Source: Deltaproteobacteria bacterium (GTDB taxonomy: Bacteria; Myxococcota_A; UBA9160; UBA4427). Taken from it: a stretch of 64,000 nt of DNA. Shown piece by piece: positions 5,292 to 62,359 of this stretch. A model generated the notes under the pieces. The model ran no database searches and had not been told where the DNA came from. It saw only the letters and a program-made list of their open reading frames with translations. Each line of letters starts with the position of its first letter. Position 1 is the first letter of the stretch. The DNA is taken from positions 9,651 through 73,650 of the forward strand of contig PBFW01000020.1 of assembly GCA_002719955.1 (NCBI GenBank). Direction: 5' to 3'. The position numbers and the translations under genes are program-made.

Positions 5292-5831
5292 ATGGAACGA
5301 ATCCGCGTGCTCGACCCGACGGCGCCGCCGCCGGCGGTTTCGACCGACCCCGGGCCTGATGCCGGCTCGCTCGCGGGCAAGACGATCGGCTTTCGCCTCG
5401 ATCAAACCTGGCAATCCTTCTTCCACGTTCGGGACGAGTGGGTGGGCCGATTCGAAGAGGCCGGCGCCAGGGTGCGGGTCTGGGACGCGGGCCACCGCGT
5501 CGGGGAAGAGGGCGAACAAACCCGCCGAGAACTCGGGGAATTTGCCGACGCCGTGGATATCGCGGTCGTCGGCCTCGGGAATTGAGGCTCCTGCACCGCC
5601 TGGACGGTCCACGACACGGTCGCGGTCCTCGAGGCGGGCAAGACGGCGGTCGCCGTTGTGACGCAGGAATTCGAATCTCTCTCCCGCACGATGGCCTCGA
5701 ATGCCGGATGGCAGGGGCTGCGCGTGCAGGTTCTGCCCTATCCGCTCGAGGCGCGGCCCGATGAAGAAGTGCGCCAGATCGCGCGCGAATCTTATCCCGA
5801 ACTGCTCGCGGCGCTCGGCGTCTGCCACTGA
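5292..5831 (+). CDS. UGSC-motif (seleno)protein; in-frame TGA 5583-5585 read as selenocysteine
   Basis: GGAGGA at 5282-5287 precedes ATG 5292. The track ORF stops at TGA 5583-5585 (...DIAVVGLGN*). The same frame stays open 81 more codons to TGA 5829-5831 (GSCTAWTVHDTVAVLEAGKTAVAVVTQEFESLSRTMASNAGWQGLRVQVLPYPLEARPDEEVRQIARESYPELLAALGVCH). The stop therefore sits in GLGN-U-GSCT. Confidence 0.7.
5603..5630 (+). promoter_or_regulatory. possible bacterial SECIS-like hairpin downstream of UGA 5583
   Basis: A hand-drawn imperfect GC-rich stem-loop (GACGGUCCACGAC-ACG-GUCGCGGUCCUC) begins 18 nt 3' of the UGA. It was not folded computationally. Confidence 0.2.
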
Positions 5832-13270: not shown

Positions 13271-14076
13271 TGGGTGCTTCCAGATTCTCGAAGACGCAAC
13301 CGGAGCAGGCGGAGGTGCAACTCGACCGCTGGGGGCGCGACGCGACCCGATCGCTCACGAGCAGTTTCTTCGAGGCCGCCTGTCGCTCCTGGTTTCGAGT
13401 CGAGTGGGAGGGCCTCGAACAGATTCCGCGGACCGGTGGTGCGCTGCTGGTCGCGAACCACGCGGGTATGATGCCCGTGGATGGCGGAATCATACAGTAC
13501 GGCATTCAGGAGGAGGTCGAACGACCGGTCTACCTGCTCGCCCATCACGGCTTTTTCCGAATTCCATTCATGGGGCGTCTCCTGAATCGAGCGGGGACGG
13601 TCGTCGCCCACCCCGATAATGCGCATCGGCTCCTGAACGAGGATCGGGAACTGGTGGCCGTCTTCCCGGAGGGCGAGAAGGGGCCGGTCAAACCTCGCTC
13701 GGAACGCTATCGACTCCAACGTTTTGGCCGCGGCGGATTCATCGAAACAGCGATGCGCGCCGACGTGCCGATCGTGCCGATCGTGTTGATGGGAACGGAG
13801 GACGCCACGCCGACGATCGCGGACCTCGACTTCGGCGGACAGAAGATGCCGCTGACCCTGAACGCGGCCCTCTTCGGTCCCGTGTTGGGGGCGATCGCAC
13901 AATTTCCGGCGAAGATTCGCGTGCGCGTTCTACCTCCGGTTCGTTTCGAGCCGGAGGCCGCGGGTGCCCCGATCTCCCGGAGCGTCCTGATGGATGGGGC
14001 GGAGGCTATTCGGGGCGAAATGCAGGCGGCCCTCGACGAGATGCTGGCGGCGCGGGAGGACATCTGGCTTGGCTGA
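13267..14076 (+). CDS. lysophospholipid (1-acyl-sn-glycerol-3-phosphate) acyltransferase family protein
   Basis: In ORF 13108..14076. ATG 13267 overlaps the upstream stop. Signatures: ...GGALLVANHAGMMPVDG... (acyltransferase H-box), VAVFPEGEKG, VPIVPIVLMGTE. Confidence 0.85.
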   Translation: MMGASRFSKTQPEQAEVQLDRWGRDATRSLTSSFFEAACRSWFRVEWEGLEQIPRTGGALLVANHAGMMPVDGGIIQYGIQEEVERPVYLLAHHGFFRIPFMGRLLNRAGTVVAHPDNAHRLLNEDRELVAVFPEGEKGPVKPRSERYRLQRFGRGGFIETAMRADVPIVPIVLMGTEDATPTIADLDFGGQKMPLTLNAALFGPVLGAIAQFPAKIRVRVLPPVRFEPEAAGAPISRSVLMDGAEAIRGEMQAALDEMLAAREDIWLG

Positions 14077-15013
14077 CTCCGCCAGACGACGCGTCGTGGT
14101 GACGGGAGCGAGGAGCCCGCTGGGTCGTCGACTGCTCGATGCCCTGCACAAGCGGTCCGAGGTCGAGTTCGTTCGTGGCCTCGAGGCCAGGCCCGCACGC
14201 CGTGGGTCCGAAGAACCGGATCTCGACATCGTCCCCTTCAGCCCCGATCACAGACCCTTCGTTGAGTATCTCGCTCGCGAGAGCATCGATACGGTGATCC
14301 AGATCGGTCTGGCACCAGACCGTACCGGGTTCGCTTCGAGCGTGAGTGAGGCCGACGTGATCGGGACCATGAGCCTCGGCGCTGCGATCGGCAGCCAGGG
14401 CGGATCCGTTCGGTGCTGGGTCGTGGCCTCCTCGAGCGCGGTCTATCCGATTGCGAGCAATTCTCCGCGCGTTGCGAGCGAGAGTCTGAAGATCCACACC
14501 GAGCAGGATTCCTTCGCGGCATCGATCCTCGAGGCCGAGGACTACGCGCGGGACATGGCGGATCGCGCGACGCATATCAATGTTTCGATCCTGCGCCTGC
14601 AACAACTCGTCGGGAAGGGAGTCGAAGGCCATCTCGCTTCCCTGCTCGAGCGGGATCGCATTCCGTCAGCGATCGGTTTCGACGCTTCGATTCAGCTCCT
14701 TCATGTCGAAGATGCCGCTCGCGCGCTGGCCTTCGCTTCGATGAACGAACTCGCTGGTGTCTTCAATGTCGCGTCGGGAGGATTGACCCATTGGGCCGCC
14801 GTTCTCGACCGATGCGGCGGTCGGCCGGCCCCCGTCCTGCCCATGGCCGCAGCGGGCCTCGAACCGATTCTCGATCGACTCGGCGTGCCCTTCCTGCCTG
14901 CAGCCCTGGTCGACCTTCTTCGACACGGCCTTGTCATCGATCTCCGAAAGATCGAGAAAGCGGGATGGAAGCCGCGGCACGACCAGGCGAGCTGTCTGGA
15001 GGATTATGGATGA
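14069..15013 (+). CDS. NAD-dependent epimerase/dehydratase (extended SDR) family protein
   Basis: In ORF 13994..15013. A TTG at 14069 (or a GTG about 27 nt downstream) overlaps the upstream stop. RRVVVTGARSPLGRRLLDAL is a Rossmann N-terminus. Later: ...LLHVEDAARALAFAS...VFNVASG. Confidence 0.78.
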   Translation: MADSARRRVVVTGARSPLGRRLLDALHKRSEVEFVRGLEARPARRGSEEPDLDIVPFSPDHRPFVEYLARESIDTVIQIGLAPDRTGFASSVSEADVIGTMSLGAAIGSQGGSVRCWVVASSSAVYPIASNSPRVASESLKIHTEQDSFAASILEAEDYARDMADRATHINVSILRLQQLVGKGVEGHLASLLERDRIPSAIGFDASIQLLHVEDAARALAFASMNELAGVFNVASGGLTHWAAVLDRCGGRPAPVLPMAAAGLEPILDRLGVPFLPAALVDLLRHGLVIDLRKIEKAGWKPRHDQASCLEDYG

Positions 15014-15085
15014 GTTCTTGCGGCGTCGGGTTTGCGAGCGGGGCCGGGAGACAATCGGGGCGGGCTCGGTGAGGGGAGGCGCGGG

Positions 15086-16555
15086 ATGGAGACCGAGAAG
15101 GAAGACAATCTGCGATTCGTGATCATCGGTGCGGGGATGGCCGGAATCCTGAGCGCGATCAAACTCGAGGAAGCTGGTCTCCACAACGTCACCCTCTACG
15201 AGAAGGCAGAACGACTCGGCGGCACGTGGCGGGAGAACACCTATCCCGGAATCGCCTGCGATGTCCCCTCTCACCTCTACAGCTACTCCTTCGCCCCCAA
15301 TCCGGAGTGGAGCCATCAATATTCGCCGGGCGTCGAAATCCAGCGTTATTTCGAGGATGTCGCAAGCCAGTTCGGGATCGGAGATCGAATCCGCTTCGGC
15401 GAGGAAATCGAGCGCTGTGAGTTCGTGGACAGTCGCTGGAAGCTTCGAACCAGGGCGGGGCGCAGGGACGAGGCCGATTTCATCATCGCCGCGACCGGTG
15501 TCCTTCACCACCCGAATAATCCAGAGATCGAGGGGCTCGAAGACTTTGACGGGGCGCTCTTCCACAGCGCGCGCTGGGATCATGACGTGCCGCTCGATGG
15601 GAAGAAGATCGGAGTAATCGGGACGGGCTCGACCGGCGTGCAGATCACATCCGCCCTCGCCGATCGTGCCCAGAAATTCTCGCTCTTCCAGCGGACGGCC
15701 CAATGGGTGATGCCGCAGGAGAATCCCGCCTACAGCGAGGCGGAGAAAAAAGAGTTCCGCGAGCATCCCGAACAGCTGAGAATCCTGCACCAGGCGATTT
15801 CGAAGCTCTTCGCGGCGAGTTTTGCGAATGCCATCGTCGATGCAGATTCCGACCTCATGAAGGAGATCGAAGCACAATGTCTCCTCAACCTGGAACAGAG
15901 CGTTTCGGATCCCGGGCTTCGGGAACGACTCCGCCCGAATTATCGCGCCGCCTGCAAACGGCTCGTGATTTCTCCCGACTTCTACGAAGCGATCCAGAAG
16001 CCGAGGGTAGAGCTCGTGACCGATGGGATTCGGAGCGTCGAACCCGGCGGAGTGCGAACGGTGGATGGTGGATTCCATGAACTCGATGTCCTCGTGATGG
16101 CCACGGGTTTTCGAGCGGATCGCTTCATGCGGCCCATGGAGATCATCGGGCGAACGGGCAAACGCCTCGACGAGGTCTGGGCAGATCGACCCTCCGCCTA
16201 CCTTTCGATTTCGATTCCCGACCTCCCGAATTTTTTCATGCTGAACGGACCGAATGGACCCGTTGGAAACTTCTCGTTGATCGAGGTAGCGGAACTCCAG
16301 TTCAAGTACATCCTGCAACTCGTCGACCAGGTTCGCGCGGGCGAGTGCCGGAGCCTCTCGGCGAGCGACGTGGCGACGCAGGTCTTCGACCGGGAACGGG
16401 TCGAGGCGGCGAAGAAGACGATCTGGAGCACGGGTTGTCGCAGCTGGTACCTGGATGATCGAGGAATCCCCGCGACCTGGCCCTGGACCTTCGATCGCTT
16501 CAGGGAAGCGATGTCCGAGCCCGATCTGGCGGCCTACGATTTTTTCTTCACGTGA
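15086..16555 (+). CDS. Baeyer-Villiger/flavin-containing monooxygenase (NAD(P)/FAD-dependent)
   Basis: In ORF 15032..16555; ATG 15086 follows GGGGAGG. Signatures: FVIIGAGMAGILSAIKLEEAG (FAD GxGxxG), YEKAERLGGTWRENTYPGIACDVPSHLYSYSF, a second dinucleotide motif KKIGVIGTGSTGVQ, and ATGF. Confidence 0.9.
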   Translation: METEKEDNLRFVIIGAGMAGILSAIKLEEAGLHNVTLYEKAERLGGTWRENTYPGIACDVPSHLYSYSFAPNPEWSHQYSPGVEIQRYFEDVASQFGIGDRIRFGEEIERCEFVDSRWKLRTRAGRRDEADFIIAATGVLHHPNNPEIEGLEDFDGALFHSARWDHDVPLDGKKIGVIGTGSTGVQITSALADRAQKFSLFQRTAQWVMPQENPAYSEAEKKEFREHPEQLRILHQAISKLFAASFANAIVDADSDLMKEIEAQCLLNLEQSVSDPGLRERLRPNYRAACKRLVISPDFYEAIQKPRVELVTDGIRSVEPGGVRTVDGGFHELDVLVMATGFRADRFMRPMEIIGRTGKRLDEVWADRPSAYLSISIPDLPNFFMLNGPNGPVGNFSLIEVAELQFKYILQLVDQVRAGECRSLSASDVATQVFDRERVEAAKKTIWSTGCRSWYLDDRGIPATWPWTFDRFREAMSEPDLAAYDFFFT

Positions 16556-19490: not shown

Positions 19491-20892
19491 TCATCCTTCG
19501 TTCTCATCGAGGTGTGCACGGGCCCATGCCCGACGCTTCTCGCGATCGGGGTCGGAGATGGTGAGGCAAGGGTCGTCGGTGATCATCGTCGGTCGCTCTT
19601 CCAGTGTGTATCGCGGTCAAGGTCCGGTCTCTGGACACGAGGGATCACCGGCGCGTGCGAAGGCCAGCCACGCGGACTGCATGGCCCTGGAAACGCGGAG
19701 CGCCCCGCGCCGTCGCCCGCGACTTTCGAGACCAGATCGGTCGTGCCGAGGGCAAAGGAAATGTCGAGGGCGTGACAAGCGCCCAGCCGTCCCTCGGCCA
19801 TCGGGGAGGTCCAACGATACCGGTACAAATAGGTCGCTGAATCGAGGCTAGCTTGATTCTCCGCCAGTCGTGTGGAGGGCACGAAGAGCCTCGCATTCGT
19901 CACGGCTACGAAGAAACGCTTCTCGTCTTCGAGTTCCGGGCCCGAGTAGAAGGGCATCAGTTTCGTGGCGGCTTCGAGCGCGCGCTCGCGCGGTCTCGGC
20001 AGCCGGCGCGCCAGCGCAGAGGGAATCTGGGCAAGAGGCTCCGGCGGAAATATTTCGCCCAGGTGATGGAGCTGCATCTCGTGTTTGGTGGTTCCCATGA
20101 TCAGCGAAACGTCGCGAGCACATCCCCGGGCGATTGCGTCCAGCGGCGTCTCGGGAATGATCTTCCCGTCCACGACCGGTGCGAAGAACATTCCGATCTG
20201 TCTCGGGCCCGGCTCCTTGCAGAGATCCAGGGTCTCCAGGATTTCGTCCACGCTGCGTCGACGCAGTCCCTCGAGATCGAGTCGGCCCTTGCCCGTGGCT
20301 TCCACGAAGAGTTCAAGGCGTCGGTCTGCCTCCTCCCCCGAGAGGATTCCTTCTGGTGCGGCGCTCTGGATGATCGCCCGATCGAAGAGCCCGTTTGCCC
20401 CCGGCATGCAGAGCCGCGCCACCAGGCTCCCGGCCCCGCGGATTCGCCGAAGACCGTGACCCGGTCTGGATCTCGGCCGAAGGCGGCGATTTCGGTGCGG
20501 ATGAAACGAAGAGTGGCGATCTGATCCTGTAATCCCACATTGGGTGATCCGGCGCCCAGGTGACCAAGGGCTCCGCCTCAGTCGTTGAGCGCGACCACGA
20601 CGACGTCGCCATCGCGCGCGAGACGGCTGCCCTCATAGACGGGCCCTGCGGCAGTTCCGCTCGCGAAAGCGCCTCCGTGGATCCAGACTATGACGGGGCG
20701 CAAGGTCTCCGACGGTTCGGTGGGGCTGAACACGTTCAGGTGAAGGCAATCTTCGTTCTGGGGATGATCGGCCAACAATCCCAGCTCGAGCGAGAGGCCA
20801 CCGACCCGCTGAATCGGAGCGGGGCCCAAACGAGTGGCCTCGCGATTGGGCTTGGACCCGCCTGCTCTGCCCATGTCCTGCCGACCGCTCAT
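19491..20892 (-). pseudogene. type-B carboxylesterase (para-nitrobenzyl esterase-like) disrupted by 2 in-frame TGAs and 2 frameshifts
   Basis: Pieces in three frames carry the family landmarks: EDCLHLNVF...PVIVWIHGGAFASG...VVVALND-TGA(20578-80)-GGALGHLGAGSPNVGLQDQIATLRFIRTEIAAFGRDPDRVTVFGESAG. A frameshift at about 20430 follows, then ...LFDRAIIQSAAP...GACHALDISFALG. A second frameshift at about 19700-19720 gives ...MQSAWLAFARAGDPSCPETGP-TGA(19617-19)-PRYTLEERPTMITDDP...*. The N-terminus upstream of 20892 also looks eroded. Confidence 0.8.
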
Positions 20893-22763: not shown

Positions 22764-23618
22764 ATGTTCGAGATCGCCAGGACCACATCGCTTACGGTGC
22801 TGCGAAAGGTTCCGACGGGGTGGATGCTCGGAGCAGACGATCGCGAGGTGCTGCTCCCGACGCGTTTCGTACCAGAGGGGACGAAGCGCGGCGATCGGCT
22901 CGAGGTCTTTCTGTATACGGATTCGGAAGATCGTCCGATCGCGACGACGGCGAGGCCGCTCGCGCAGGCGGGTGAGTTTGCCGGACTTCGGGTCGCCTCG
23001 GTGAACTCGACTGGCGCTTTTCTCGACTGGGGGCTTCCGAAGGATCTGCTCTTGCCCTTTCGGTCTCAGCTCGGGCGACTTCGGCCCGGACAACGGGTCG
23101 TGGTCTACGTCGATTGCGATTCGGTCTCCGGTCGACCGGTTGCGTCCGCCAAGGTCGAGCGCTTTCTCGAAATCCCACCCGAGCAATTGCGTGAGGGCCA
23201 GGCGGTTGAGATTCTCGTCTATGAGGAGACCGAGCTGGGTGCAAAAGCGATCGTCGACGGCCGCTTCGGAGGACTGCTCTATGCCGATTCGGGCAGGAGC
23301 CAGCTCGAGATTGGTGTCGCGGCTGGCGGGTACATCGATCGTATCCGTCCGGATGGGAAGGTCGATCTCTCTCTCGCACCCAGGGGTCGGGCGGGGGCGG
23401 AGCAGGCGAGGGAGATCCTCTTGCGAGCGCTCGAGCGGGCTGGCGGACGTCTCGAACTCTCGGATGGGAGTTCGCCCGAGGAGATTCGTCGGGAACTCGG
23501 CCTCAGCAAGAAGGCTTTCAAGCGGGCGGTCGGTGCGCTCTACCGAGAGCGGCGTATTCGTCTTGAGGATTTATCGATCGAGTGGACGGATTCGGGGAAG
23601 AAGGGCGGCGAAATGTGA
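22764..23618 (+). CDS. S1-like RNA-binding domain protein, CvfB/YitL family
   Basis: In ORF 22650..23618; ATG at 22764. ...GWMLGADDREVLLPTRFVPEGTKRGDRLEVFLYTDSEDRPIATT...GAFLDWGLPKDLLLPF...RPDGKVDLSLAPRG... plus a winged-helix-like C-terminus ...LGLSKKAFKRAVGALYRERRI. Confidence 0.85.
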   Translation: MFEIARTTSLTVLRKVPTGWMLGADDREVLLPTRFVPEGTKRGDRLEVFLYTDSEDRPIATTARPLAQAGEFAGLRVASVNSTGAFLDWGLPKDLLLPFRSQLGRLRPGQRVVVYVDCDSVSGRPVASAKVERFLEIPPEQLREGQAVEILVYEETELGAKAIVDGRFGGLLYADSGRSQLEIGVAAGGYIDRIRPDGKVDLSLAPRGRAGAEQAREILLRALERAGGRLELSDGSSPEEIRRELGLSKKAFKRAVGALYRERRIRLEDLSIEWTDSGKKGGEM

Positions 23619-24250
23619 AAGATGACCCGTATTCGATCGATCCCGCCCAGCGGACGACCATCCTGGCCCACTACTATCGAGCGATGGTCGGTCGAGCCGA
23701 CATCTGGCGAACGCGCCTGGATGCGACGACGAACTGGGCCATCGGCGCGACTGCGGCGATTATTTCCTTCACCCTGGGCAACGATCAGGTTCCCCATTAT
23801 GTGGTCTTCATCGCGCCCCTGATGACCTGCAGTTTCCTGCTCCTCGAGGCCCGCCGGCTCACGTTCTATCATCTCTGGCAACAGCGCGTGCTCCTGCTCG
23901 AAGAGGGATTGATGCGCCCCGCGCTCTCCGCTGCGGCCGAAGGGAGTTTCGACCTGTCGGCGTCGCTCGAGGGTCATCTCGGCCGCACGATTCCCACGAC
24001 GCCGCTCGCGAAGGCCGTCGCGCGTAGGCTCTGACGGGTCTCTCTCTATCTCTTCGCGGTTCAGCTGCTCGCCTGGACACTGAAACTCGTCGATCATCCG
24101 ACGCCCGCGAAGTCGATCGCGACGGTCGTCGAACGGGCGGATCTTGGCTTCTTGTCCGGCTGAGGGGTGATTGCCGGGGGAGTGGTTCTGGTGGTGATGG
24201 TGCTGATCGTCTCGATCCTGCGAGTTGGCATCGATCGCGATCCGGCCTGA
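23615..24250 (+). pseudogene. DUF2270-like integral membrane protein gene interrupted by two in-frame TGAs (24032-24034, 24161-24163)
   Basis: The GTG at 23615 overlaps the cvfB-like stop (GTGA). ...ILAHYYRAMVGRADIWRTRLDATTNWAIGATAAIISF...LEARRLTFYHLWQQRVLLLE...AVARRL-TGA-RVSLYLFAVQLLAWTLKLVDHPTPAKSIATVVERADLGFLSG-TGA-GVIAGGVVLVVMVLIVSILRVGIDRDPA*. The parts after each TGA keep the frame, the codon bias and TM-helix character. Confidence 0.6.
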
Positions 24251-25480: not shown

Positions 25481-26215
25481 ATGTTTAGTTATGTGTCGTT
25501 GGAGGCACGGATCCCTTCGGATCATCCGCTTCGACAGATGCGAACCATGGTGGATCGGGCCTTGGAGTCGATCTCGGCGGGGTTCTCGGAGCTGAGCCCG
25601 ACGATGGGGAGGCCTGCAATCCCACCGGAACGGCTGCTTCGCGCCCTTCGTGTGCAGATCCCGTTCTCAGCCCCCAGCGAACGTCAGTTGATGGAGCAGC
25701 TCGAGTACAACCTGCTCTAACCGCTGCTTCGTCGGGCTCGGCATGGATGATCCGGTCTGGGATCCGACGACGTTCGGGAAGAACCGGGATCGGTTGCTGG
25801 AAGGCGACGTTGCGCGGGCCTTCTTCGACACCGTGCACGAGTAGGCCTCCGAGAAGAAGCTCTTGTCGTCGAACCACTTCACCGAGGACGGGACGCTGAT
25901 CGAGGCTTGGCGAGCACAAGAGCTTTCAGCCGAAGAAGGACAAGAACGGCCAGAGCCAGTGGGGTTCCGGTGGTGGAGGCTCTCGTAACGAGACGGTCTC
26001 CTGCCATGGCCAGAAGCGCTTGAACGACACGCAGGACTCTGTCGATGCGTGTCGGTCCCTTGCGGTCACGCCCCACGTGGCGCAGAACACGTCGAACCGG
26101 TCGAGCCGGATCGACGGTCGATCGACGCGACACGGGGGCTACGCGGTCAGTCAGCGCCGCCGGAAGCGGGTCGAAGAGGTCTTTGGTTGGACGAAGACGG
26201 GCGGTCTGCTAGCGC
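25481..26215 (+). mobile_element. degraded IS5/IS1182-family transposase gene (frameshifts, stops, internal deletion of the DDE core)
   Basis: The N-terminal domain is intact (MFSYVSLEARIPSDHPLRQMRTMVDRALESISAGFSELSPTMGRPAIPPERLLRAL...SERQLMEQLEYNLL*). It then continues in other frames: ...CFVGLGMDDPVWDPTTFGKNRDRLLEGDVARAFFDTVHE*, ...LLSSNHFTEDGTLIEAW..., GGGGSRNETVSCHGQKRLNDTQDSVDA. From there it jumps straight to the C-terminal motif ...VTPHVAQNTSNRSSRIDGRSTRHGGYAVSQRRRKRVEEVFGWTKTGGL. I could not define the inverted repeats. Confidence 0.8.
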
Positions 26216-26661
26216 ACGGCCACACGAAGAATCGAGAGCGCTTTGTCCGCGTGGCCCGACATGTCGAGTTCGCTCTTGATGATGCCCAGAATCTTTCGGT
26301 CCCTTCCGATCACGAAAGTGGCGCGCTTATTCGGCAGAGGACCGAACCGCTTCACGCCGAAGCCTCTCGCGATCTCGCGATCGGGATCCGAGAGAAGCGG
26401 GAAGCCGAGATCGTTCTCTTCGTCGAAGGTTTTCTGCCGATCCACCGGATCGGCGCTGATTCCCACGCGCTGGGCACCGAGTTCCGAGAACTCGCGAGCC
26501 AGGTCACGAAAGTGGCAGCATTCGATCGTTCAACCCGGCGTCATCGCCTTCGGATAGAAGAAGAGCGCGAGCGGCCCGCTCGCGAGAAGATCACTCAGCC
26601 GGACGATCTTTCCGTCCTGGTCCGTTGAGGCGAAATCACTCACCAGATCGTTCGTCTCCAT
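26209..26661 (-). CDS. bcp: BCP/PrxQ-type peroxiredoxin with TGA (selenocysteine candidate) at the peroxidatic position
   Basis: ATG 26661 follows AAGGAG. METNDLVSDFASTDQDGKIVRLSDLLASGPLALFFYPKAMTPG-TGA(plus tca 26530-26532)-TIECCHFRDLAREFSELGAQRVGISADPVDRQKTFDEENDLGFPLLSDPDREIARGFGVKRFGPLPNKRATFVIGRDRKILGII... The track lists only the 3' 85 codons (26209..26466). Confidence 0.8.
26479..26493 (-). promoter_or_regulatory. perfect 6-bp hairpin downstream of the peroxiredoxin UGA (possible part of a SECIS element)
   Basis: On the mRNA strand, GAGUUC-UCG-GAACUC lies 37-51 nt 3' of the UGA. Found by hand; the distance is on the long side for a bacterial SECIS. Confidence 0.15.
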
Positions 26662-26935
26662 CCTGTGGTCTCCTTCTGTCCCGTAGTCAAGAGGTCGGCT
26701 CGTCCATTCGAGCGAGCGCTGTGGGTTCCGTGACGCCGATCGAGGGTACAGGAGGAGGAAGCGGAGCGCGGGAGATTCGGCTCCTCTATTGTCTGGCAGT
26801 TCCCGAATTCGGAGAAGGGGCGACCCCCATCATGGTGCCAGCATCCGGGGCTCCGGTCGGAGCCGTTGCGAATCGCCCCCCGATCGGTGTCCGACATCAG
26901 GGCCTCGGCAAATTCCATCGAGAGGAGAGAGTCGC

Positions 26936-40558: not shown

Positions 40559-42805
40559 CTAACCCGCGTCCGCAACGGGAAGCGGTGATGCCGGTTCACG
40601 CGCGTCGTCGCGTGCGCGCAGGAGACCGAAGGCGGCTTGCAGGTGCGCCCGATCGCCGTGTCGCGAGGGCGTGGGGTGCCGGGTGTCCGTTCCGTCCGGC
40701 CTCCCGGGCCGATGCTCCGGCGTGTGGAACGCCGACGACCCCTCGCGGGTCGCGGCCGCTTCGATCGTCCCGTGACGTTGTGCTTCGATACGCTCTTCGA
40801 CCTCGAACTGGAAGCCGGCATCGTTGGCATCGTCGTGGCAGGTTCCGCAGACCTTGAGGATCACGCAGGAATCACATTTGTCGCCGAGGGAGAGGATGGT
40901 GCCGACGCGCCTTGCGCTCTCGCCGATATGCTCGCTCCCCGGCCCGTGGCACGACTCGCAGCCGACACGTGCGAGATCGGATTGGGCCGAGACGGGGGCA
41001 CCGGGCGGAAATCCGCCGGGGCGGCCATACGCCGTCGTGTGACACTCCAGACAGCCTTCTTCGCCGGCCTGCCCCGTCTTTTCGAGGGTGGCGACCGAAT
41101 GGCCGTGGGGGCTCGCCTGCCAGGTCTTGAATTCCGACTCGTGACAGACCTGACAGGCTTCGGAGCCGACATAGTCGGCTGAGGTGGGGAGGAGGTCTCG
41201 GCTGGGGCCGCCCCCTTCGAGAAGCTGGCTGCGCTCCTCGTTCGAGAGGGATGCGATCCGCTTGTGGGAGACCCGCGGATGGAAGCTGGTGAAGTCGAAG
41301 CCGAGGGAGTGGGTCGGGTTGTGACAGGTCGCACAGACCTGGGCGTAGTCGCGTTTCGAGTCCTCGCCCCTCGGAACGAAATCCGGGCTCAGGTGTGGCC
41401 CGCCTCGGCCGTGGCACGACTCGCAGCCGACGTTCTCGAGATGAGCGGGTCGCCGGCTGAAATCGTAACCGCCCCTCTCCTCGAAGCCGACGACGTGGCA
41501 GCCGATGCAATCCGTTCGTCGATCGGCGGCGTGGGCGACGAGCGTCTCGAAAGCGGTGGCGTGTTTGGTGTACTGCCAGGCCGCATGTTCCTGCTCGTGG
41601 CAGGCCCCGCAAGCATCGTTGCCGCTGAATCCCTTCGCTTCGAGCAACATCGGCGCGGGCGCACCCGCTGCGCGGGACGCGTGCAGGCGCAGCAATCCGC
41701 CGTCGCGCTGCCCGTTCCAGCCCTGACTGCGATGCCGCAGGCGTCCTTCGCTGTCGACCACGGCCACGACGGGGACGCCACCGGTCACGCCCCAGCGGTC
41801 CGTAGCCTTGCCACTCGGGTCGAGGAAGGGATCGAAGAAGTCGAGCCCGAGATCAGCGAGCGACTTGCGGAGCGCGCTGGGCGAGTTCTGGATCGAGACC
41901 GCGACCAGGCGCGGCCGTTGTTCCAGGGGGATCGAGTCCAGAATGCCCTTGATCGCTTCCAGCGCCCTGTGACAGTGCGGACAGGTGTGCAGGAAGAAGA
42001 TCACGATGGCCGCGCGGCCCTGCAATTCTTTCGTCTCGAGCGATTGCCCGGTCGACATCGCGATCACGCCGAGTTCCGGGGCCTGGGGGTAGCCATAGAG
42101 CGCGCCCTTGCCATCCGCGACGGTGGCGGAGAGCCGCAGGCGGCTGCGCAATTCCTTGTCCGCGAAGGCACGCAGATCGCCGTCCTTTGGGAAGCCGGCG
42201 AAGCCGAAGGTCATGTAGCCGTCGGCGTCCACGCCGACCGCGGCGACCGCCGCGTTCAGCCGAAGCAACTGCGTAATCTTTCCGCCGCTATCGTCGATCA
42301 CGGGGAAGTCGAGACCCCCGTCTTTTGCGAAACGGGAGAGCGTGGCTGCATTCGAGCCGACGCCGATCCCGACGACGCGAATATTATGGTCGAGGGCGTC
42401 GGGAACGAGCGCGTTGACCGCGGCGCTCACCGGCGCGGACTCATCGGCCTCGGGGTTGAAGAAGAAGAGCAGGACACGTGCCCCCAGCAGGCTGCTCATC
42501 GAGAGTCGAGTGCCCGCGATGGTCGTACCCTCGAAGGCCGGAACCGGACGCTCATTGGGATTCCGCGCGGCCTTCTCGCCCTTGGCTTTCAGCGCTCGAG
42601 CGCTCGTCGTCGACGATGCCTGAGGGCCGTGATCGTGGGTTTCACCAGTGGCGGTTCCGGGGCTGCTCTCTTTCGTGGTCTCCGCGCGGGTCGCGGCGCC
42701 GGGGGGGGGCGTCTCCTCGCCCGTGCAGGCGATCGCGCCAGAGATCAGAAAACACAGAAGGATCGGGATCGGGAGGCCTCGAATGCCTCGGGTCGGTTTC
42801 GACAT
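40559..42805 (-). CDS. lipoprotein fusing two thioredoxin-fold (TlpA/redoxin-like) domains to an octa-haem c-type cytochrome (cytochrome c554-like multihaem) module
   Basis: 748 aa with the lipobox LLCFLISGAIAC. The first redoxin-like domain lacks CxxC (VLLFFFNPEADESAP). The second carries FFLHTCPHCHRALEA. There are eight CxxCH sites: CGACH, CIGCH, CESCH, CATCH, CQVCH, CLECH, CESCH and CGTCH. Confidence 0.85.
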   Translation of the reverse strand: MSKPTRGIRGLPIPILLCFLISGAIACTGEETPPPGAATRAETTKESSPGTATGETHDHGPQASSTTSARALKAKGEKAARNPNERPVPAFEGTTIAGTRLSMSSLLGARVLLFFFNPEADESAPVSAAVNALVPDALDHNIRVVGIGVGSNAATLSRFAKDGGLDFPVIDDSGGKITQLLRLNAAVAAVGVDADGYMTFGFAGFPKDGDLRAFADKELRSRLRLSATVADGKGALYGYPQAPELGVIAMSTGQSLETKELQGRAAIVIFFLHTCPHCHRALEAIKGILDSIPLEQRPRLVAVSIQNSPSALRKSLADLGLDFFDPFLDPSGKATDRWGVTGGVPVVAVVDSEGRLRHRSQGWNGQRDGGLLRLHASRAAGAPAPMLLEAKGFSGNDACGACHEQEHAAWQYTKHATAFETLVAHAADRRTDCIGCHVVGFEERGGYDFSRRPAHLENVGCESCHGRGGPHLSPDFVPRGEDSKRDYAQVCATCHNPTHSLGFDFTSFHPRVSHKRIASLSNEERSQLLEGGGPSRDLLPTSADYVGSEACQVCHESEFKTWQASPHGHSVATLEKTGQAGEEGCLECHTTAYGRPGGFPPGAPVSAQSDLARVGCESCHGPGSEHIGESARRVGTILSLGDKCDSCVILKVCGTCHDDANDAGFQFEVEERIEAQRHGTIEAAATREGSSAFHTPEHRPGRPDGTDTRHPTPSRHGDRAHLQAAFGLLRARDDAREPASPLPVADAG

Positions 42806-42838
42806 GGCCGGCAGGTTAGCAGGAGCCGGCCCGGGCGG

Positions 42839-43363
42839 TCAGGACTCGTCCTGCTGTCTCACCTTGAGTTCTTCCACCATCGTCTTGAAACCGGTGTTGC
42901 CCGGCTCGAAGGTCAGCGCCATCTGGAGATGCTGGATCGCCCCCCCGAGGTTGCCCGACTTGAGCTCGGTCTCGGCTTTGGCGTGGAATTGACGACCCCG
43001 AGCGGTCGCCCCCCGGCACTCGGCTCTGCGCTGTTGCGCGTGGGCGCTCCTCGCCTCAGCGAGCTGGATGCGCCGTGCATCTCCCTCGGCTCGTTGGGCG
43101 TCATAGACCTTGCGCCGGCGGGTATCGCGCAGGACACAATAGGCTTCGGTGATGCGTTTCGAGATCTGGCCGCATTGCTCCTGCAGGTCTGCGGCGAGCT
43201 GGCGGTTGGCATCCGGGTGGAAGCTGCGTGAGGAGTCGTGAAAGGCCTTGCGGATCTCGCTGCTCGAGGCAGTGGAGCCGATATTCAACAACTGGTAGTA
43301 GTCGAGCTCGTCCATGATTCGAACGAGGGCGGAGATCTCCAGCGGGTCGATCGCAACGCGCAT
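42839..43363 (-). CDS. J-domain (DnaJ-like) protein with a C-terminal TPR-like helix pair
   Basis: 174 aa: ...DYYQLLNIGSTASSSEIRKAFHDSSRSFHPDAN...ITEAYCVLRDTRRRKVYD (HPD motif). It starts 6 nt after the Hsp70 stop. Confidence 0.85.
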   Translation of the reverse strand: MRVAIDPLEISALVRIMDELDYYQLLNIGSTASSSEIRKAFHDSSRSFHPDANRQLAADLQEQCGQISKRITEAYCVLRDTRRRKVYDAQRAEGDARRIQLAEARSAHAQQRRAECRGATARGRQFHAKAETELKSGNLGGAIQHLQMALTFEPGNTGFKTMVEELKVRQQDES

Positions 43364-54416: not shown

Positions 54417-57400
54417 CTAGTGGCTTCTTTCGAGCCGTTCGCAGAGTAGATTCGTGATGTGCGCCAGCAATCTTCGTGCGGGCTCGGAAGTCGAGGCCAG
54501 GGTTCCGATTCTGGCCCCTTCGAAGGCGGCGCTTTCGGAGTCCGCGCTCTCGAGTACGAGCAGCGCGCGAAGTACACATCGAAGGTCACCGCCGTGGCGA
54601 TCGACGGACCGGGCCGCCGCCATCGCCCGCAGGTCGTCGCCCCAGGCCTGGTGGTCCAATGCCTCGATCTCGCGGAGCGTCGTCTCCTCGACGCTTCGCC
54701 GAATCTTGCGTCGGGTCCAACGTCCCAGAGATTCCTCGAGTTCGGTTCGGAACTGAGATTCGTGACCGGTGCCGCCCGGGTCGAGGGACAGAGCCACCAA
54801 CGTGGAGAAGAGTGTCGCGCGTTCGCCGGTCTCGAGACGGGCGAGGCCTGGCGCGCAGAGTTCGTCCTCGATCGATCCGATCTGACGGATCGCGTCGGCG
54901 ATCTGCGGATCTTCGTCATCGGGTCGACCGGCACCAGAGCCCGCGAGGACAGCCGAGAGTTCTTCCCTCATCTGATGTGCCAGGCGACGCAGCCTCTCCG
55001 CCTCGGGGTCCACCATCTGCGGACCGGCGTCGATCGGGAATCGCAGCGTGGTCGGTGCGGACGCTTCTTCTTGTGGGGAGGCCAGACCGAGCGCGCGAAG
55101 TACGGTGATGGCTCCGTCCTCGACCTCTGATTCTCCGCGTTCTTTCGCGATCTGGCCGATCGCGCGAAGGGAGTCTGCGGTCGTGGGGGAGGATGCGAGA
55201 ATTTCCCGATGCAGTGCGAGGGATTCACGCCAGCGCTCTGGTGCGTGCAGGAGCAGGCGTGCCAGCGACGCTCGGGCGACGCCCATCTCCGGTTGCAGCG
55301 CGAGGGCGGATTGGTAGGCGGCCACGGCTTGATCGAAATCCTCCAGGGGTCCGGACAGGAGGCGACCGCGTTCGAGGTAGATATGGGCGAGGGCGCGGCG
55401 CTCACGATTCGGGTGGGCTTCGATGAAATTCTTGAGCACCGCATCCGCCTCGACCCAATCGCCGGCCATGCGCGCCAGTCGGGACTCACAGAGTGCCGCA
55501 TCGCTCGCGCTCGGGTCCCACCGCGCGGTTTCGCGATAGTGTTCTCGCGCTTCCTCGGTCTCTCCCGCGATCTCGGCCAGGCGTGCCGCACGCAGTGAGA
55601 TCTGCGCCGACAGGGAACTCGGCTCGATCGAATCGAGCGCGCGGGCGCATAGCGTTCGGACATCGGAGTCCGGCCCGCGTTCCCCCATCAGATCGCAGAG
55701 CAGAACCCACGCCGAGGAAAACCGTGGATCCACCTCGGTCGCGCATTCGAGCTGCTCGATCGCCCGATCCGTATCCTCCAGCGCGAGGGCGTGTTCGGCT
55801 GCTCGGAAGTGAGTGAGTGCGCGCGTCTCGGCCGCGCCGGGGGCCTCCGACCATCGTTCGAGTGCTGCGAGTGCTTCCTCCGGGCGAGCGGCACGTTCGT
55901 GCACACGGACCACGCCTTCGTGGGCGTTCTGGAGGGACGGGTCGGCCTCGATGGCTTCCTCATAGCGGGCCCATGCCACGTCGAGGTGATTCTCGGCCTC
56001 GAGTCCACGCGCGATGATCGCCAGGTGCTGGGCGCGATCCCGGTTCTCGCCTGGGAGGTCGATGCGGCGTTCGAGGGCCACACGCGCGGCACAGAAGTCG
56101 CCGTCCTCGAAATGGGCGAACCCGACGCATTCGAGGGCTTCGGGCTGATCCGCGTCGATTTCGAGGGCGATCTCGAAAAGGCCGCGACTCGCGTCGCGAC
56201 GGCCGAGTTCCCGGGCGGCGCAGCCGCCGAGCACTGCGACTTCGAGACGCTCCGCGTCGTCGATCGGCTCGGCGCGGGCGAGGTCGAGGGATCGCTGCGC
56301 CGCGCGTTCGGTTTCCTCGAGTCTTTCCAATCGATGGGCGACACGCGTGAGCGCGACATGCGCGCCGAGGGCGGCTGGGTCGAGTTCGATCGCGCGCAGG
56401 AGCAGGCGATGCGAGCGGTCTATATCGAGACCCATCGCGCAGGCAGCGGCTTTCGTACAATGGTCCGCGGCCGCGTCGGGCGAGGCGTGATCCGCGGCGC
56501 GTTCGAAGGCGGTCGCGGCTTGCTCGCAATGTCCGGCGTCCCGCGCGAGGTGGGCGAGCAGTGCCCAGGCGGCGTCGGACTCCGGCGCCACAGCGGTCGC
56601 TCGTTCGCTGCGGATGAGTGCCGTCTCCGAATCCCCTCGCGCGACGAGCGCCCGGGCGACTTCGAGATGATCGCTGACGCCGGCCTCGGAATCGCTCCGG
56701 TCGCACCAGTGGCCCAGACATTCGCAGAACGATTCCATGTCTCCGACCGTTTCGAATAGGCGGGCCAGTCGCAGCTCGTCCGGCGCACTGAGATGTTCGA
56801 GTTCGGCAGCCGCGCGGTAGGCCTCGATCGCATCGCCAGGATGCTCGCAAGCGTCGATCGACAGCGTCGCGACTCGTAGCCAGATCTCTCGCCGGCGCGA
56901 TCGGGTCTCGCACTCGTCTGCGAGGATCTCGAGTTCGCGGCGATAGAGGGCAATGCTATTGACGGATTCGCAACAGGCTTCCTTCACCAGGATCAGCGAT
57001 CGCAGCGCCTCGAGATCGTTGGCATCGAGATCAAGTGCGAGCTGATAGCCGCGGGCGGCGCGTTCCCCGGCGCCGAGGCGATGCCAGTAGACATCGCCGA
57101 GCCGTCGCGCGAGGGCCGCGCGCTGTGCGGGCTCGAGAAGATCATCGAGGCCGTATTCCGCCTCGATGGCATCGGCGAGTCCCTGCCAATCCCGGAGTCG
57201 CTCGCTACAACGTCGCCGCCCGCGGACCGCATCGAGGATCTGCTCGGGATCGCTCTCTGCAGCACGATAGGCGTCGCGTGCCCCCCGCAAGTCCAGCAGC
57301 CTTTCCTCTCGGATCTGAGCCAATTCGAGCCAGGCTGCCCCGTCGTCATCGCGGCGCTCGACAGACGCGACCAGTTCGCTTGCGAGCTCCGGAAGTCGCC

Positions 57401-60400
57401 CGGTGCGCCGCAGGAGCTTGCGGAGTCGCTCGCCGAGTACGGGATCAAATTCGCCGTCGGTACGGCAGAGCACGCGGAGATGTCCGAGTGCGCGCTCGCT
57501 GTCGCCCATCAGGGTGTCGTAGGTCCGCGCGAGTTCCTCACGCAGGGTACGCTTGAATTCGCGGGGGGTCGTGTCCTTCAGAACCGGGTCGTTCTCGATG
57601 ATTGCGAGTTCACGCTCGGCGACGTGGACCCATTGATCGTGGCGGCCGCTCGCCCGGAGGGCAGCGTCGAGGGCTCCGAGGGCAGCGATTTCGCCCTGCG
57701 GATCGTGACGGCTCGTCTCGACGTTGGCGACGAGATGGGGGATCGCTCTTTCGGGCTTTGCGAGGGTCGTACAGAAGAGTGCTGAGACCGCTTTGCGAAG
57801 CTCGAAGCATTTGTCGTCGTCGAGGAGTTCGATGCGCGCTTCGAGAATTTCGGCGCGCTCGGGCGTGCGCCCCATGAGGTCGTAGAGCCGATCGAGTTCT
57901 CGGAGGATCTCCGCCTTGTCATCGCTTCGCTCGAGCGCTTCGCGATAGGCATGGATCGCGCGGCCCGGAGCGTGGAGATCGCGCTCGAGCAGCCGCGCTC
58001 GCTGTAGGTGAAGCCGGCAGCGTTCCGCATCGTCGGTTCGGCGATCGAGTTCGTCGTCGAGGGCGCGAAGGGCTGCTTCGAAGCGGCCCGCTCGGCGATG
58101 CACCTCGGCAAGACGCGCGTAGAGTTCGGGATCCTGCGGTCTTTCCTCCAGCATGCGTGCGAGCCAGGGCAGGGACGCATCCGGATTGATCCTCGACCAG
58201 GCGATCTCGGACGCTTCTTCGAAGAGTTCGTAGCGGTCCGCGTTCTGCTTCTCCATCGCTTCGACGAAGAGACAGTCGAGCACCGCCGGCCACCGTTCTA
58301 GACGCTCGAGCAGCAAGCGCAGGGAGGTCCTGGCGCTCTTCCGACTCCGGTCGAACGAGATCGATTCGCGAAGGCTCAGCACCGCCTGGTCGGGGCGATC
58401 GAGTTCATTTGCGAAGAGATCGGCGCGGCGTTCGAGGATCTCTGCGCGCTCGTGGTTCGGGAGCGAGGTGCCGAGTGAACGATCGAGCAGCGAGAGAAGC
58501 CGCTCATTGTCGTGGCTTTGCTCGGTGAGCTCGACGGCGCGGTTGAACGCGTCGCGATGTTGCGGAAGGGAATCGAGGATCCACTCGAGGTGCACCAATG
58601 CCTGTTCGGGTTCATTGCGCCTCTCGGCGTGAAGGCGGGCCAGTCGCAGGCGCAGGTCGATGTTCTCGTCCTCACGGGCGAGGGATAGATGTTTTTCGAG
58701 GAGCTCGGTGAGTGGCTCGATCTCGTCGACGCGCTCGTAGATCTCGATCAGCGTCGTCTCGATCTCGTGATCGTTCGGGGACTCGGCGAGTGCTGCGCGA
58801 TAGGCGATCGCCGCTTCGTCGAAGTGGCCGAGTGCGTATTCACTCTCGCCGAGCCGAAGCCACCAGACCAGCTCGCCGTGTCCTTCGCCCGGGCTGGCGA
58901 GGACGGCGCGCGCGAGATCGCGTGCCGCCTCGTGTGCGTCGCCGCGACCGTAGAGTTCAGCCAGTGGATCGGCGACCTGGGGAATCGGGCCGAGGCGCTC
59001 GAGAGCGTGTTCGAGGAGGGGTCGCGCTCGCTCGTCGTCGTTCAGTGGGCCGCAGAGGAGGCTAGCGAGTCGCAGTCGAATCTCCGTCGCCTCGGGGCCA
59101 TCCGATTCTTCGACGCTGGCCAGGCGCGCTTCGAGGATCTTCGCGGTCTCGTCGTGGCGATCTTCGCTCGAAAAATGCATCGCGAGCACTTCGGCCGCCT
59201 CTGCATGGCCCGGGTCGAGTTCGAGAACACGCTGGTAGTGTTCGTAGGCCTCGCCGACCTCGCTTCCCTCAGGCCGTCGGTCCTCGTCGAGGCAGAGTCG
59301 TGCGGCCCCGACGCGCAGCATGAATTCACGTTCGGGCGAGGCCACGCAATCGAGCTCAGCCTTGACGACGCGCAGCCAGTCGGCGGGGCGATCGAGCTTC
59401 TGGGCGTAGATCTCCTCGAGTTGCTGCCAGACGTCGACGCGATTGCTTTCGAGTTGGGCAACGATCTCGAGCTGCTCGGCACAGCCTGCGAAATCGCTGA
59501 GGCGATCGCGGCAGAGCGCGGCCAGCCCTTCGCGCAGCGTCGCCTCCTCCTCCTCGGGGAGCGCTTCTGCGCGCGTGTTCAGCCGCTCCCGCAGCCGCTC
59601 CCATTGAGACGTGAACTCGAGCAGTGCCTCCAAACGTTCCCCTGCGCGTTCGGCTGCTTCCGAACCGTTGTAGAGGGTGAGGATCTCTTCGTAGAGATCA
59701 CAGGCCTCGAGCGGCTCTTCCAGCCCCTCCTCCATGAGTGCGGCGCGCTCGAGCTGTATTTTCGCCCTGCACGCTTCGTCGGGTTCCCAGCCCGCTCGCT
59801 GCTCGAGGAGTTCGCAGAGGCCCGCGGCGTCGTCCCCGCTGCGAAGCGCTCGCTCGTAGAGGTCGATGATCTCGTTGCTCTCGGGGTGACACTCGTGGAG
59901 CGCGGCCAAGATTTCGGCGGCCTCTTCGCAATGACCGAGTGAGTCGAGCAGGATCGTCGCCCGCTGTGTGTCGAGTTCGAAGGCCTCTGGCGAATTGCCC
60001 CCGACGCGCTGCCGGCGGGTCGCGAGGAGATGCGCCAGCTCCGAATAGCGCCCCACCGATTCGAGCAACGACTCGAGTTCGTGGAATGCCTCGGCTGGGC
60101 CATCGGGCAGGTCGACGAGTCGCCATTTAACGACGATGGCCGCGTCGATATCTCCGAGCGGGTCCTGCAACGTCGAAGCGAGTTCTTCGAGCAGGTCGGG
60201 TTGTTCGTCAGGCGGGAGCAGATCGGTCAGCTGGCGGAGCGCGCGGACGAGATCCTGAGGACGCTTGAGGCGTCGATAGACGTCGCAAAGTGAGGTCAGG
60301 ACGTTTTGCGGATCGGCGTGGGATTCCAGCGCGAGCTCGAGTGCAGTCCCGGCGTCGAGATCCTGCCCCAGTTCGACGTGCAGCGCCGCTTGACGCTCGA

Positions 60401-62291: not shown

Positions 62292-62359
62292 GGATCCCTC
62301 TCATCGACTCGCATCGGGGGTCTACCGGGTTCTTTATCGACACGTGAGACGCATCCTTG

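Follow-up and report, generated by a model that had tools for sequence, protein, structure and literature searches.

A probable selenocysteine peroxiredoxin gene, split in annotation at its catalytic codon, with a Sec-form-specific downstream RNA structure of unusual spacing

We describe a peroxiredoxin (Prx) gene in a 64,000-nucleotide stretch of contig PBFW01000020.1 (assembly GCA_002719955.1, Deltaproteobacteria bacterium), hereafter called the window, in which positions are counted from the first nucleotide. The region 26661..26209 on the minus strand is a single intact gene; as judged from its sequence and that of its relatives, it very probably encodes a BCP/PrxQ-type thiol peroxidase that depends on thioredoxin and has selenocysteine (Sec) as the peroxidatic residue. 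The gene is a further member of a known family of Sec-containing peroxiredoxins; its interest lies in its misannotation and in the non-canonical RNA structure of its subfamily. The gene comprises the following elements, of which start, Shine-Dalgarno-like motif and stop were read from the sequence:

26209..26661, minus strand: peroxiredoxin gene, complete; 150 aa, BCP/PrxQ type, putative Sec as residue 44
26670..26675, minus strand: Shine-Dalgarno-like AAGGAG, 8 nt before the ATG
26661-26659, minus strand: ATG start
26530..26532, minus strand: UGA, putative Sec codon at the peroxidatic (CP) position of PxxxTxxU; sole in-frame TGA of the open reading frame
26515..26520, minus strand: Cys codons +4 and +5 after the TGA, of which +5 (Cys49) is the BCP-type resolving Cys
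26211-26209, minus strand: TAG stop

Apart from the TGA at 26532-26530, the open reading frame contains no additional stop and no frameshift, and the starts of orthologues (MKKNDLV and MKPKDIV) agree with the ATG at 26661-26659. The mechanical list of open reading frames gave the gene as two pieces, one of 43 aa (26530..26661) and one of 85 aa with a GTG start (26209..26466). The public copies that we found, for which there was no named protein record, are likewise either 43-aa and 85-aa fragments or carry tryptophan (W) at the catalytic residue. The initial annotation had extended the 85-aa GTG frame through a single TGA to an ATG at 26661, with AAGGAG 8 nt upstream, and had read the joined 150-aa product as a full-length BCP-type peroxiredoxin. 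Both claims are borne out on the minus strand, the second by a match of the product to the Pfam family AhpC-TSA (PF00578) that runs nearly end to end (E value 2.4e-31, residues 5-124, profile positions 3-121 of 124). Among solved structures, the peroxiredoxin 5epf_A is closest (E value 2.4e-47 over residues 1-147), and its peroxidatic Cys aligns with the TGA column. In an alignment of 23 sequences (alignment A1), this column holds the Cys of FFYPKAMTPG-C-T.E.C in 19 Cys homologues; no variation is seen at P37, T41, G43, T45 or the catalytic R113, and the CP column contains either Cys or TGA. The active-site motif of the product reads P37-K-A-M-T41-P-G-U44, where U denotes the putative Sec. The alignment and 5epf_A confirm the earlier assignment of the TGA to exactly the peroxidatic Cys of PxxxTxxC, with a Cys at +5.

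A resolving Cys five residues after CP, as in the alpha-type (atypical 2-Cys) BCP proteins, is present as Cys49, although not all members of the subfamily have it: 88% of the Sec orthologues have Cys at +5 and 12% have Gly or Arg instead. Among the fetched loci, nine Sec orthologues are of this kind, with Gly in L004, L051, L069 and L077 and Arg in L049, L080, L096, L099 and L115, and their missing Cys would imply a 1-Sec mechanism, or another resolving thiol, for some members of the subfamily. The Cys at +4 is particular to this organism and is replaced by Ser in orthologues. The product scores below the NCBIfam equivalog cutoffs (89.6 bits versus 140 for PRK09437, the E. coli Bcp model, and 81.3 versus 260 for PerredPrxQDein), and it belongs to a BCP/PrxQ-like subfamily outside the E. 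coli Bcp and Deinococcus PrxQ equivalogs. Based on peroxiredoxin chemistry, we infer an enzymatically active product whose selenolate would attack the peroxide; the resulting selenenic acid would be resolved by Cys49, and the selenenylsulfide would then be reduced by a thioredoxin-like partner.

The TGA is conserved. The 85-aa fragment is present on 16 contigs, and all six loci that were fetched carry the TGA; since they represent five independent assemblies of marine origin, all of this organism (two from TARA samples, two from sequencing runs, one a GenBank metagenome), a sequencing error is excluded. Out of 5.8 billion proteins, the three nearest homologues (72-77% identity) are stored with W, where the DNA codon is TGA; the records with W at the catalytic residue (P0001-P0003) correspond to loci L001-L004 on short metagenome contigs. 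The source translation of L001 continues for about 80 residues beyond the conserved C-terminus and through two additional TGAs, and the W call is therefore a gene-caller artefact. A TGA-specific degenerate pattern (FFYP.A.T.G-TGA-T.E), whose information content of 47 bits leads us to estimate far less than one chance match, was run on 185,579 species genomes. It matched in 109 of them, and every one of the 109 matches is a Prx homologue by tblastn; four metagenome contigs likewise carry TGA at that codon. About 80 of the 109 genomes contain the same subfamily at 57-84% identity, the best match being a Myxococcota metagenome-assembled genome at 83.6%. These members are mostly found in Acidimicrobiales and other Actinomycetota and in Myxococcota or 'Deltaproteobacteria', with a few in Spirochaetaceae and Gemmatimonadetes. 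The remaining matches (about 30) fall into distant Prx groups with 33-45% identity that likewise have TGA at CP; several lineages of Prx have thus adopted Sec. Distant TGA-bearing groups occur in Planctomycetota (L014, L017, L022, L031, L044, L075 and L110) and Anaeromyxobacter (L026, L041, L054, L064 and L065), and further at L056, L063, L066 and L081.

Both halves of the gene are under purifying selection. In pairwise comparisons of the window gene with nine orthologues, the ratio of nonsynonymous to synonymous substitution rates (dN/dS) is 0.06-0.25 upstream of the TGA and 0.07-0.22 downstream of it, and the downstream value is 0.09-0.19 when the codons of the RNA structure described below are left out. 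The low ratios on both sides of the TGA indicate that both halves are translated and constrained. For 72 of 73 Sec forms the nearest neighbour is another Sec form, with a few Cys forms nested among them, and the Sec forms are a coherent subfamily. Interchange of Sec and Cys is typical of selenoprotein families. A Cys orthologue, P0007 (L240), is syntenic with the window gene, sharing the holin-like Phage_holin_4_2 gene upstream and the NUDIX gene downstream. The comparison of orthologues that the initial annotation had called for shows a conserved TGA or TGC in relatives, and no decay.

The RNA downstream of the TGA was compared between 72 Sec orthologues (alignment A3) and 113 metagenomic Cys forms chosen for the T.ESCHFR context, with position +n corresponding to window coordinate 26532-n. 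Three elements were drawn independently by RNAalifold:

26470..26502, minus strand: hairpin H2 (+30..+62); 82.7% of cells paired, five pairs with compensatory changes
26493-26479, minus strand: upper stem of H2, GAGUUC-UCG-GAACUC, 37-51 nt after the TGA
26436..26454, minus strand: hairpin H3 (+78..+96); 8-bp stem GCCGAUCC/GGAUCGGC with a GGU triloop at 26446-26444
26455..26459 with 26534-26530, minus strand: possible long-range helix P0, UCAGC (+73..+77) with GUUGA (-2..+2), which includes the UGA

The Sec forms exhibit an unusual fixation of synonymous codons from codon -2 to codon +32. CCT-GGT precedes the TGA, GAA is fixed at codons 3 and 16, CAT at codon 6, and ATC-AGC-GCC-GAT-CCG-GTG-GAT-CGG at codons 24-31; GAT is found in 89-97% of the Sec forms, whereas the Cys forms have GAC in about 90%, and CGG is found in 97% of the Sec forms. 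The structure as a whole has 89.2% of cells paired across the 72 orthologues, against at most 50% when the pairing is slid, and none of 500 shuffles came up to the observed figure by any measure. H3 is paired in 96.8% of cells, with compensatory changes in five of its eight pairs (such as GAUCC/GGAUC to GACUC/GAGUC, and GCC..GGC to GCU..AGC or to GGU..GCC), a closing pair that varies between C-G, A-U and G-C, and a GGU loop in 70 of 72 sequences. In the Cys forms, 31.4% of H3 cells are paired and no sequence is fully paired; even in the three closest Cys forms with identical ADPVDRQ residues, synonymous changes break H3. The upper stem of H2 is paired in 95.8% of cells in the Sec forms compared with 58.1% in the Cys forms, of which 2.7% are fully paired. 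Among sequences with the residues EF.EL, it is fully paired in 96.5% of the Sec and 30% of the Cys forms. The codon that forms its loop varies, and none of the loop nucleotides is conserved (the loop reads UCG in the window). P0 is paired in 98.3% of cells in the Sec forms and 62.1% in the Cys forms, none of which is fully paired; its support comes from conservation without covariation, as changes in it are one-sided only. We dropped a further hairpin, H1 (+8..+25, immediately following the UGA and with a register shift between a K-type and an I-type), which lacks Sec specificity, with 4.58 of five pairs in the Sec forms versus 4.08 in the Cys forms and no gain in energy, and which would lie inside the ribosome during decoding. 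Two TGA-bearing loci, L016 and L080, the latter with a Cys form as its nearest relative, are without H3 and its GGU loop and may be pseudogenes or use another signal.

According to the mechanism we infer for the UGA, SelB with Sec-tRNA(Sec) would be recruited by RNA structure within the coding sequence downstream of the codon, and Sec would be inserted in place of termination. In the model of the bacterial Sec insertion sequence (bSECIS), the loop measures 3-9 nt, follows the pattern N1-G-[G|U]-N-N2 and has a G within its first two positions; the stem has 4-16 bp, the minimum free energy is at most -7.5 kcal/mol, and the spacing to the UGA is 16-37 nt. Some selenoprotein genes misfit this model (PMC13188914). 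A distance of 11 nt between the UGA and the upper stem-loop is required in E. coli (PMC8659212). H3 fits the bSECIS model with its loop, its 8-bp stem and a mean minimum free energy of -12.8 kcal/mol, but its spacing of 83 nt is outside the range. The hairpin to which the initial annotation had pointed, 37-51 nt downstream, is real, conserved and Sec-specific; however, with a spacing of 42 nt and a UCG loop without G at either of the first two positions, it does not agree with the bacterial consensus, and H3 is the stronger and, in our judgement, the best candidate for a SECIS-like, putatively SelB-binding element.

Two readings of the RNA signal have to be weighed. In the first, to which we give less than even chances, the gene encodes a Sec peroxiredoxin, and SelB binds not H3 but H2 or a weak hairpin at +17..+33, at the canonical distance, while H3 and P0 serve mRNA stability, ribosome pausing or the modulation of competition with RF2. 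The Sec-specificity of H2 and its spacing, much nearer to the consensus than that of H3, favour this reading, as do the strict distance in E. coli (PMC8659212), a small helix that RNAalifold drew at +17..+33 (CGY loop, +24..+26), and the distant Sec-Prx groups, which have canonical-looking SECIS hairpins with GGUC, GU or GUU loops at about +20..+30. These ordinary loops show that the odd geometry is specific to the PrxQ-Sec subfamily. On the other hand, the loop of H2 is variable and lacks the consensus G in the window. In the +17..+33 helix, changes are one-sided only and at amino-acid-constrained positions, and its bases are dictated by the residues C-H-F-R-D-L, which the Cys forms have in common. 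Only H3 combines an N1-G-G-U-N2 loop with strong covariation and near-total loss in the Cys forms. The second reading, which we put forward tentatively and consider possible though less likely than not, is that the PrxQ-Sec subfamily represents a distinct class of bacterial SECIS in which SelB binds the GGU-triloop hairpin about 83 nt downstream and H2 and P0 place it; P0, if formed, would bring H3 beside the UGA in the folded mRNA.

Indirect support that the organism decodes Sec comes from a second gene with its own TGA, 21 kb from the peroxiredoxin gene, which is probably the 'first' selenoprotein candidate of the initial annotation:

5292..5831, plus strand: UGSC-family putative selenoprotein gene; TGA at 5583-5585 is the U of UGSC

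It matches PF24696 (E value 4.3e-31, profile positions 2-171 of 172) and scores 74 bits with NF041046, 'UGSC family (seleno)protein', below the 125-bit cutoff. We sought relatives with a Sec form and found none among the top 120 homologues, with Cys in all 119 in which the motif could be located. The RNA after the UGSC TGA has a long hairpin at about +10..+56 followed by a second hairpin whose 6-bp stem carries a GGUC loop at +65..+68 (fold z -2.29), a layout that resembles that of the peroxiredoxin gene. This hints that the distal-hairpin arrangement may be a property of the SelB of this lineage.

Several observations weigh against a Sec-decoding gene with the RNA signal described. No element fits the whole bSECIS consensus, for the reasons of spacing and loop given above. 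Rfam scans, both at the gathering threshold and at E values up to 10, gave no matching family, SECIS included. Single-sequence folding of the downstream region was no better than that of shuffled sequences (z 0.04 and z -0.77); such scores are uninformative in GC-rich coding sequence, and therefore the hairpin alone is no evidence, whereas the comparative data are. The Sec forms are one clade and some of their common nucleotides may be inherited, yet dS between members ranges from 0.6 to more than 2. No selA, selB or selD was found by Pfam among the window proteins encoded up to 50 kb or in the fetched loci, and no tRNA-Sec gene was found in the 64-kb window, which is without any tRNA gene, or in loci L001-L119. 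Finally, decayed genes lie nearby, which means that pseudogenes do occur in this genome.

The last point bears on the possibility that the peroxiredoxin gene is itself a pseudogene, an ordinary Cys form in which TGC or TGT has mutated to TGA and whose reading frame is decaying. We consider this very unlikely, even though public gene calls split the gene, Sec machinery was not seen in the window and three neighbours are damaged (a DUF2270 gene with an in-frame TGA, a split COesterase gene and an IS5/DUF772 fragment). A decaying frame agrees neither with a TGA common to 109 species genomes and four metagenome contigs, including the roughly 80 close orthologues, nor with the low downstream dN/dS and the freedom from other stops and frameshifts, nor with a covarying RNA structure specific to the Sec forms. 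The initial annotation had judged Sec usage more likely than a chance nonsense mutation on the one catalytic residue, and the conservation across these 109 genomes, the dN/dS ratios and the Sec-specific RNA now support that judgement. A true nonsense codon in the same window looks different:

23582-24163, plus strand: DUF2270 membrane-protein gene; in-frame TGA at 24032-24034, beyond which the Pfam match continues

Here, the TGA replaces not a redox Cys but an Arg that is conserved in 117 of 119 homologues, none of which has a stop at this site. It is likely a CGA to TGA nonsense mutation or a truncation, and we rejected the gene as a third selenoprotein candidate because of the conserved Arg; the public records MBJ19698.1 and MCP4905476.1 hold the truncated 139-aa product. 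The COesterase (carboxylesterase) gene at 19583-20892 on the minus strand is probably disrupted, being called in pieces of 104 aa and 274 aa (and one of 31 aa) about 170 nt apart. Directly 3' of the peroxiredoxin stop, at 25481-25720 on the plus strand and extending to about 26100, a 79-aa DUF772 fragment (N-terminal part of an IS5-family transposase) looks like an insertion-sequence remnant.

It is extremely improbable that TGA is read as Trp, Cys or Gly without selenium, by an altered code or near-cognate read-through, as the W stored in P0001-P0003 might suggest: ruvC, ruvA and ruvB in the window end at TGA with full-length Pfam matches, so that TGA is a normal stop here and a reassigned code is excluded, the W call at L001 is an artefact, the window has a GC content of 64.5%, and a reassignment would leave the conserved downstream RNA structure unexplained. 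Known lineages with reassigned TGA are low in GC. With Trp as the catalytic residue, peroxidase chemistry would be lost.

Other same-frame TGA junctions in the window, at 13991-16555 and 40559-43363, were rejected as selenoproteins, being merely adjacent genes. At the latter, 40559-42838 on the minus strand encodes a large protein in which a redoxin-like CPHC segment and many CxxCH haem-binding motifs were seen by eye, and which directly follows a DnaJ-like gene that ends at the same-frame TGA. Also on the minus strand, 54417-62300 is an open frame of 2,628 codons with a coding-like GC content at third codon positions, and the opposite strand has a chain of open stretches separated by same-frame TGAs.

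In summary, an abundant antioxidant selenoenzyme of marine bacteria has been missed or misdescribed in annotation, and the selenium dependence of the lineages that carry it is underestimated. A 'W' at the catalytic Cys column in protein databases offers a quick route to hidden selenoprotein genes of this kind. The conserved RNA of the subfamily violates the spacing rule on which prediction of bacterial SECIS elements relies; should SelB indeed bind the distal GGU hairpin, the predictors miss a class of selenoprotein genes, and the strict distance between UGA and SECIS known from E. coli would not be universal.

Sec-peroxiredoxins of the TxxU type (COG1225), on record since 2005, abound in marine metagenomes, with 43 genes from the Sargasso Sea (PMC1088965; PMC13188914), and they are listed among the established prokaryotic selenoproteins (PMC13188914), which is in accordance with the class named in the initial annotation. 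The gene described here shares with this family (COG1225/PF00578), as described from the Sargasso Sea and GOS selenoproteomes, the AhpC-TSA fold, a PxxxTxxU motif with Sec at the peroxidatic position, Cys homologues that are widespread, a marine origin and a genome with another putative redox selenoprotein, the UGSC protein. The protein is essentially the same, and the differences are the extra +4 Cys of this organism and an RNA structure of the subfamily that breaks the bSECIS spacing. PrxU of Eubacterium acidaminophilum, reported as an experimentally characterised Sec peroxiredoxin (Sohling et al. 2001, cited in PMC13188914), belongs to another Prx subfamily: the window gene scores 25.8 bits with NF040737 (peroxi_PrxU) against a cutoff of 270, and the profile has 233 positions, compared with about 150 aa for the BCP/PrxQ type. 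Also close in protein terms are the Cys-containing BCP/PrxQ proteins (5epf_A, E. coli Bcp and P0007), which have about 150 aa, the motif FFYP.AMTPG-C/U-T.E.C, the Arg of KRATF and a spacing of five between CP and the resolving Cys (CR). In contrast to the Sec forms, they have Cys in place of Sec and no conserved H2, H3 or P0. On the RNA side, the known counterpart is the bSECIS of the E. coli fdhF type. As in that element, H3 lies in the coding region and has a G-G-U apical loop with a covarying closing pair, and the UGA may be base-paired in a lower helix, here P0. In contrast, the H3 loop is 83 nt from the UGA rather than at the 16-37 nt of the consensus or the 11 nt of E. coli, a conserved hairpin (H2) stands between the two, and H3 is a separate 3' hairpin rather than the tip of one continuous stem.

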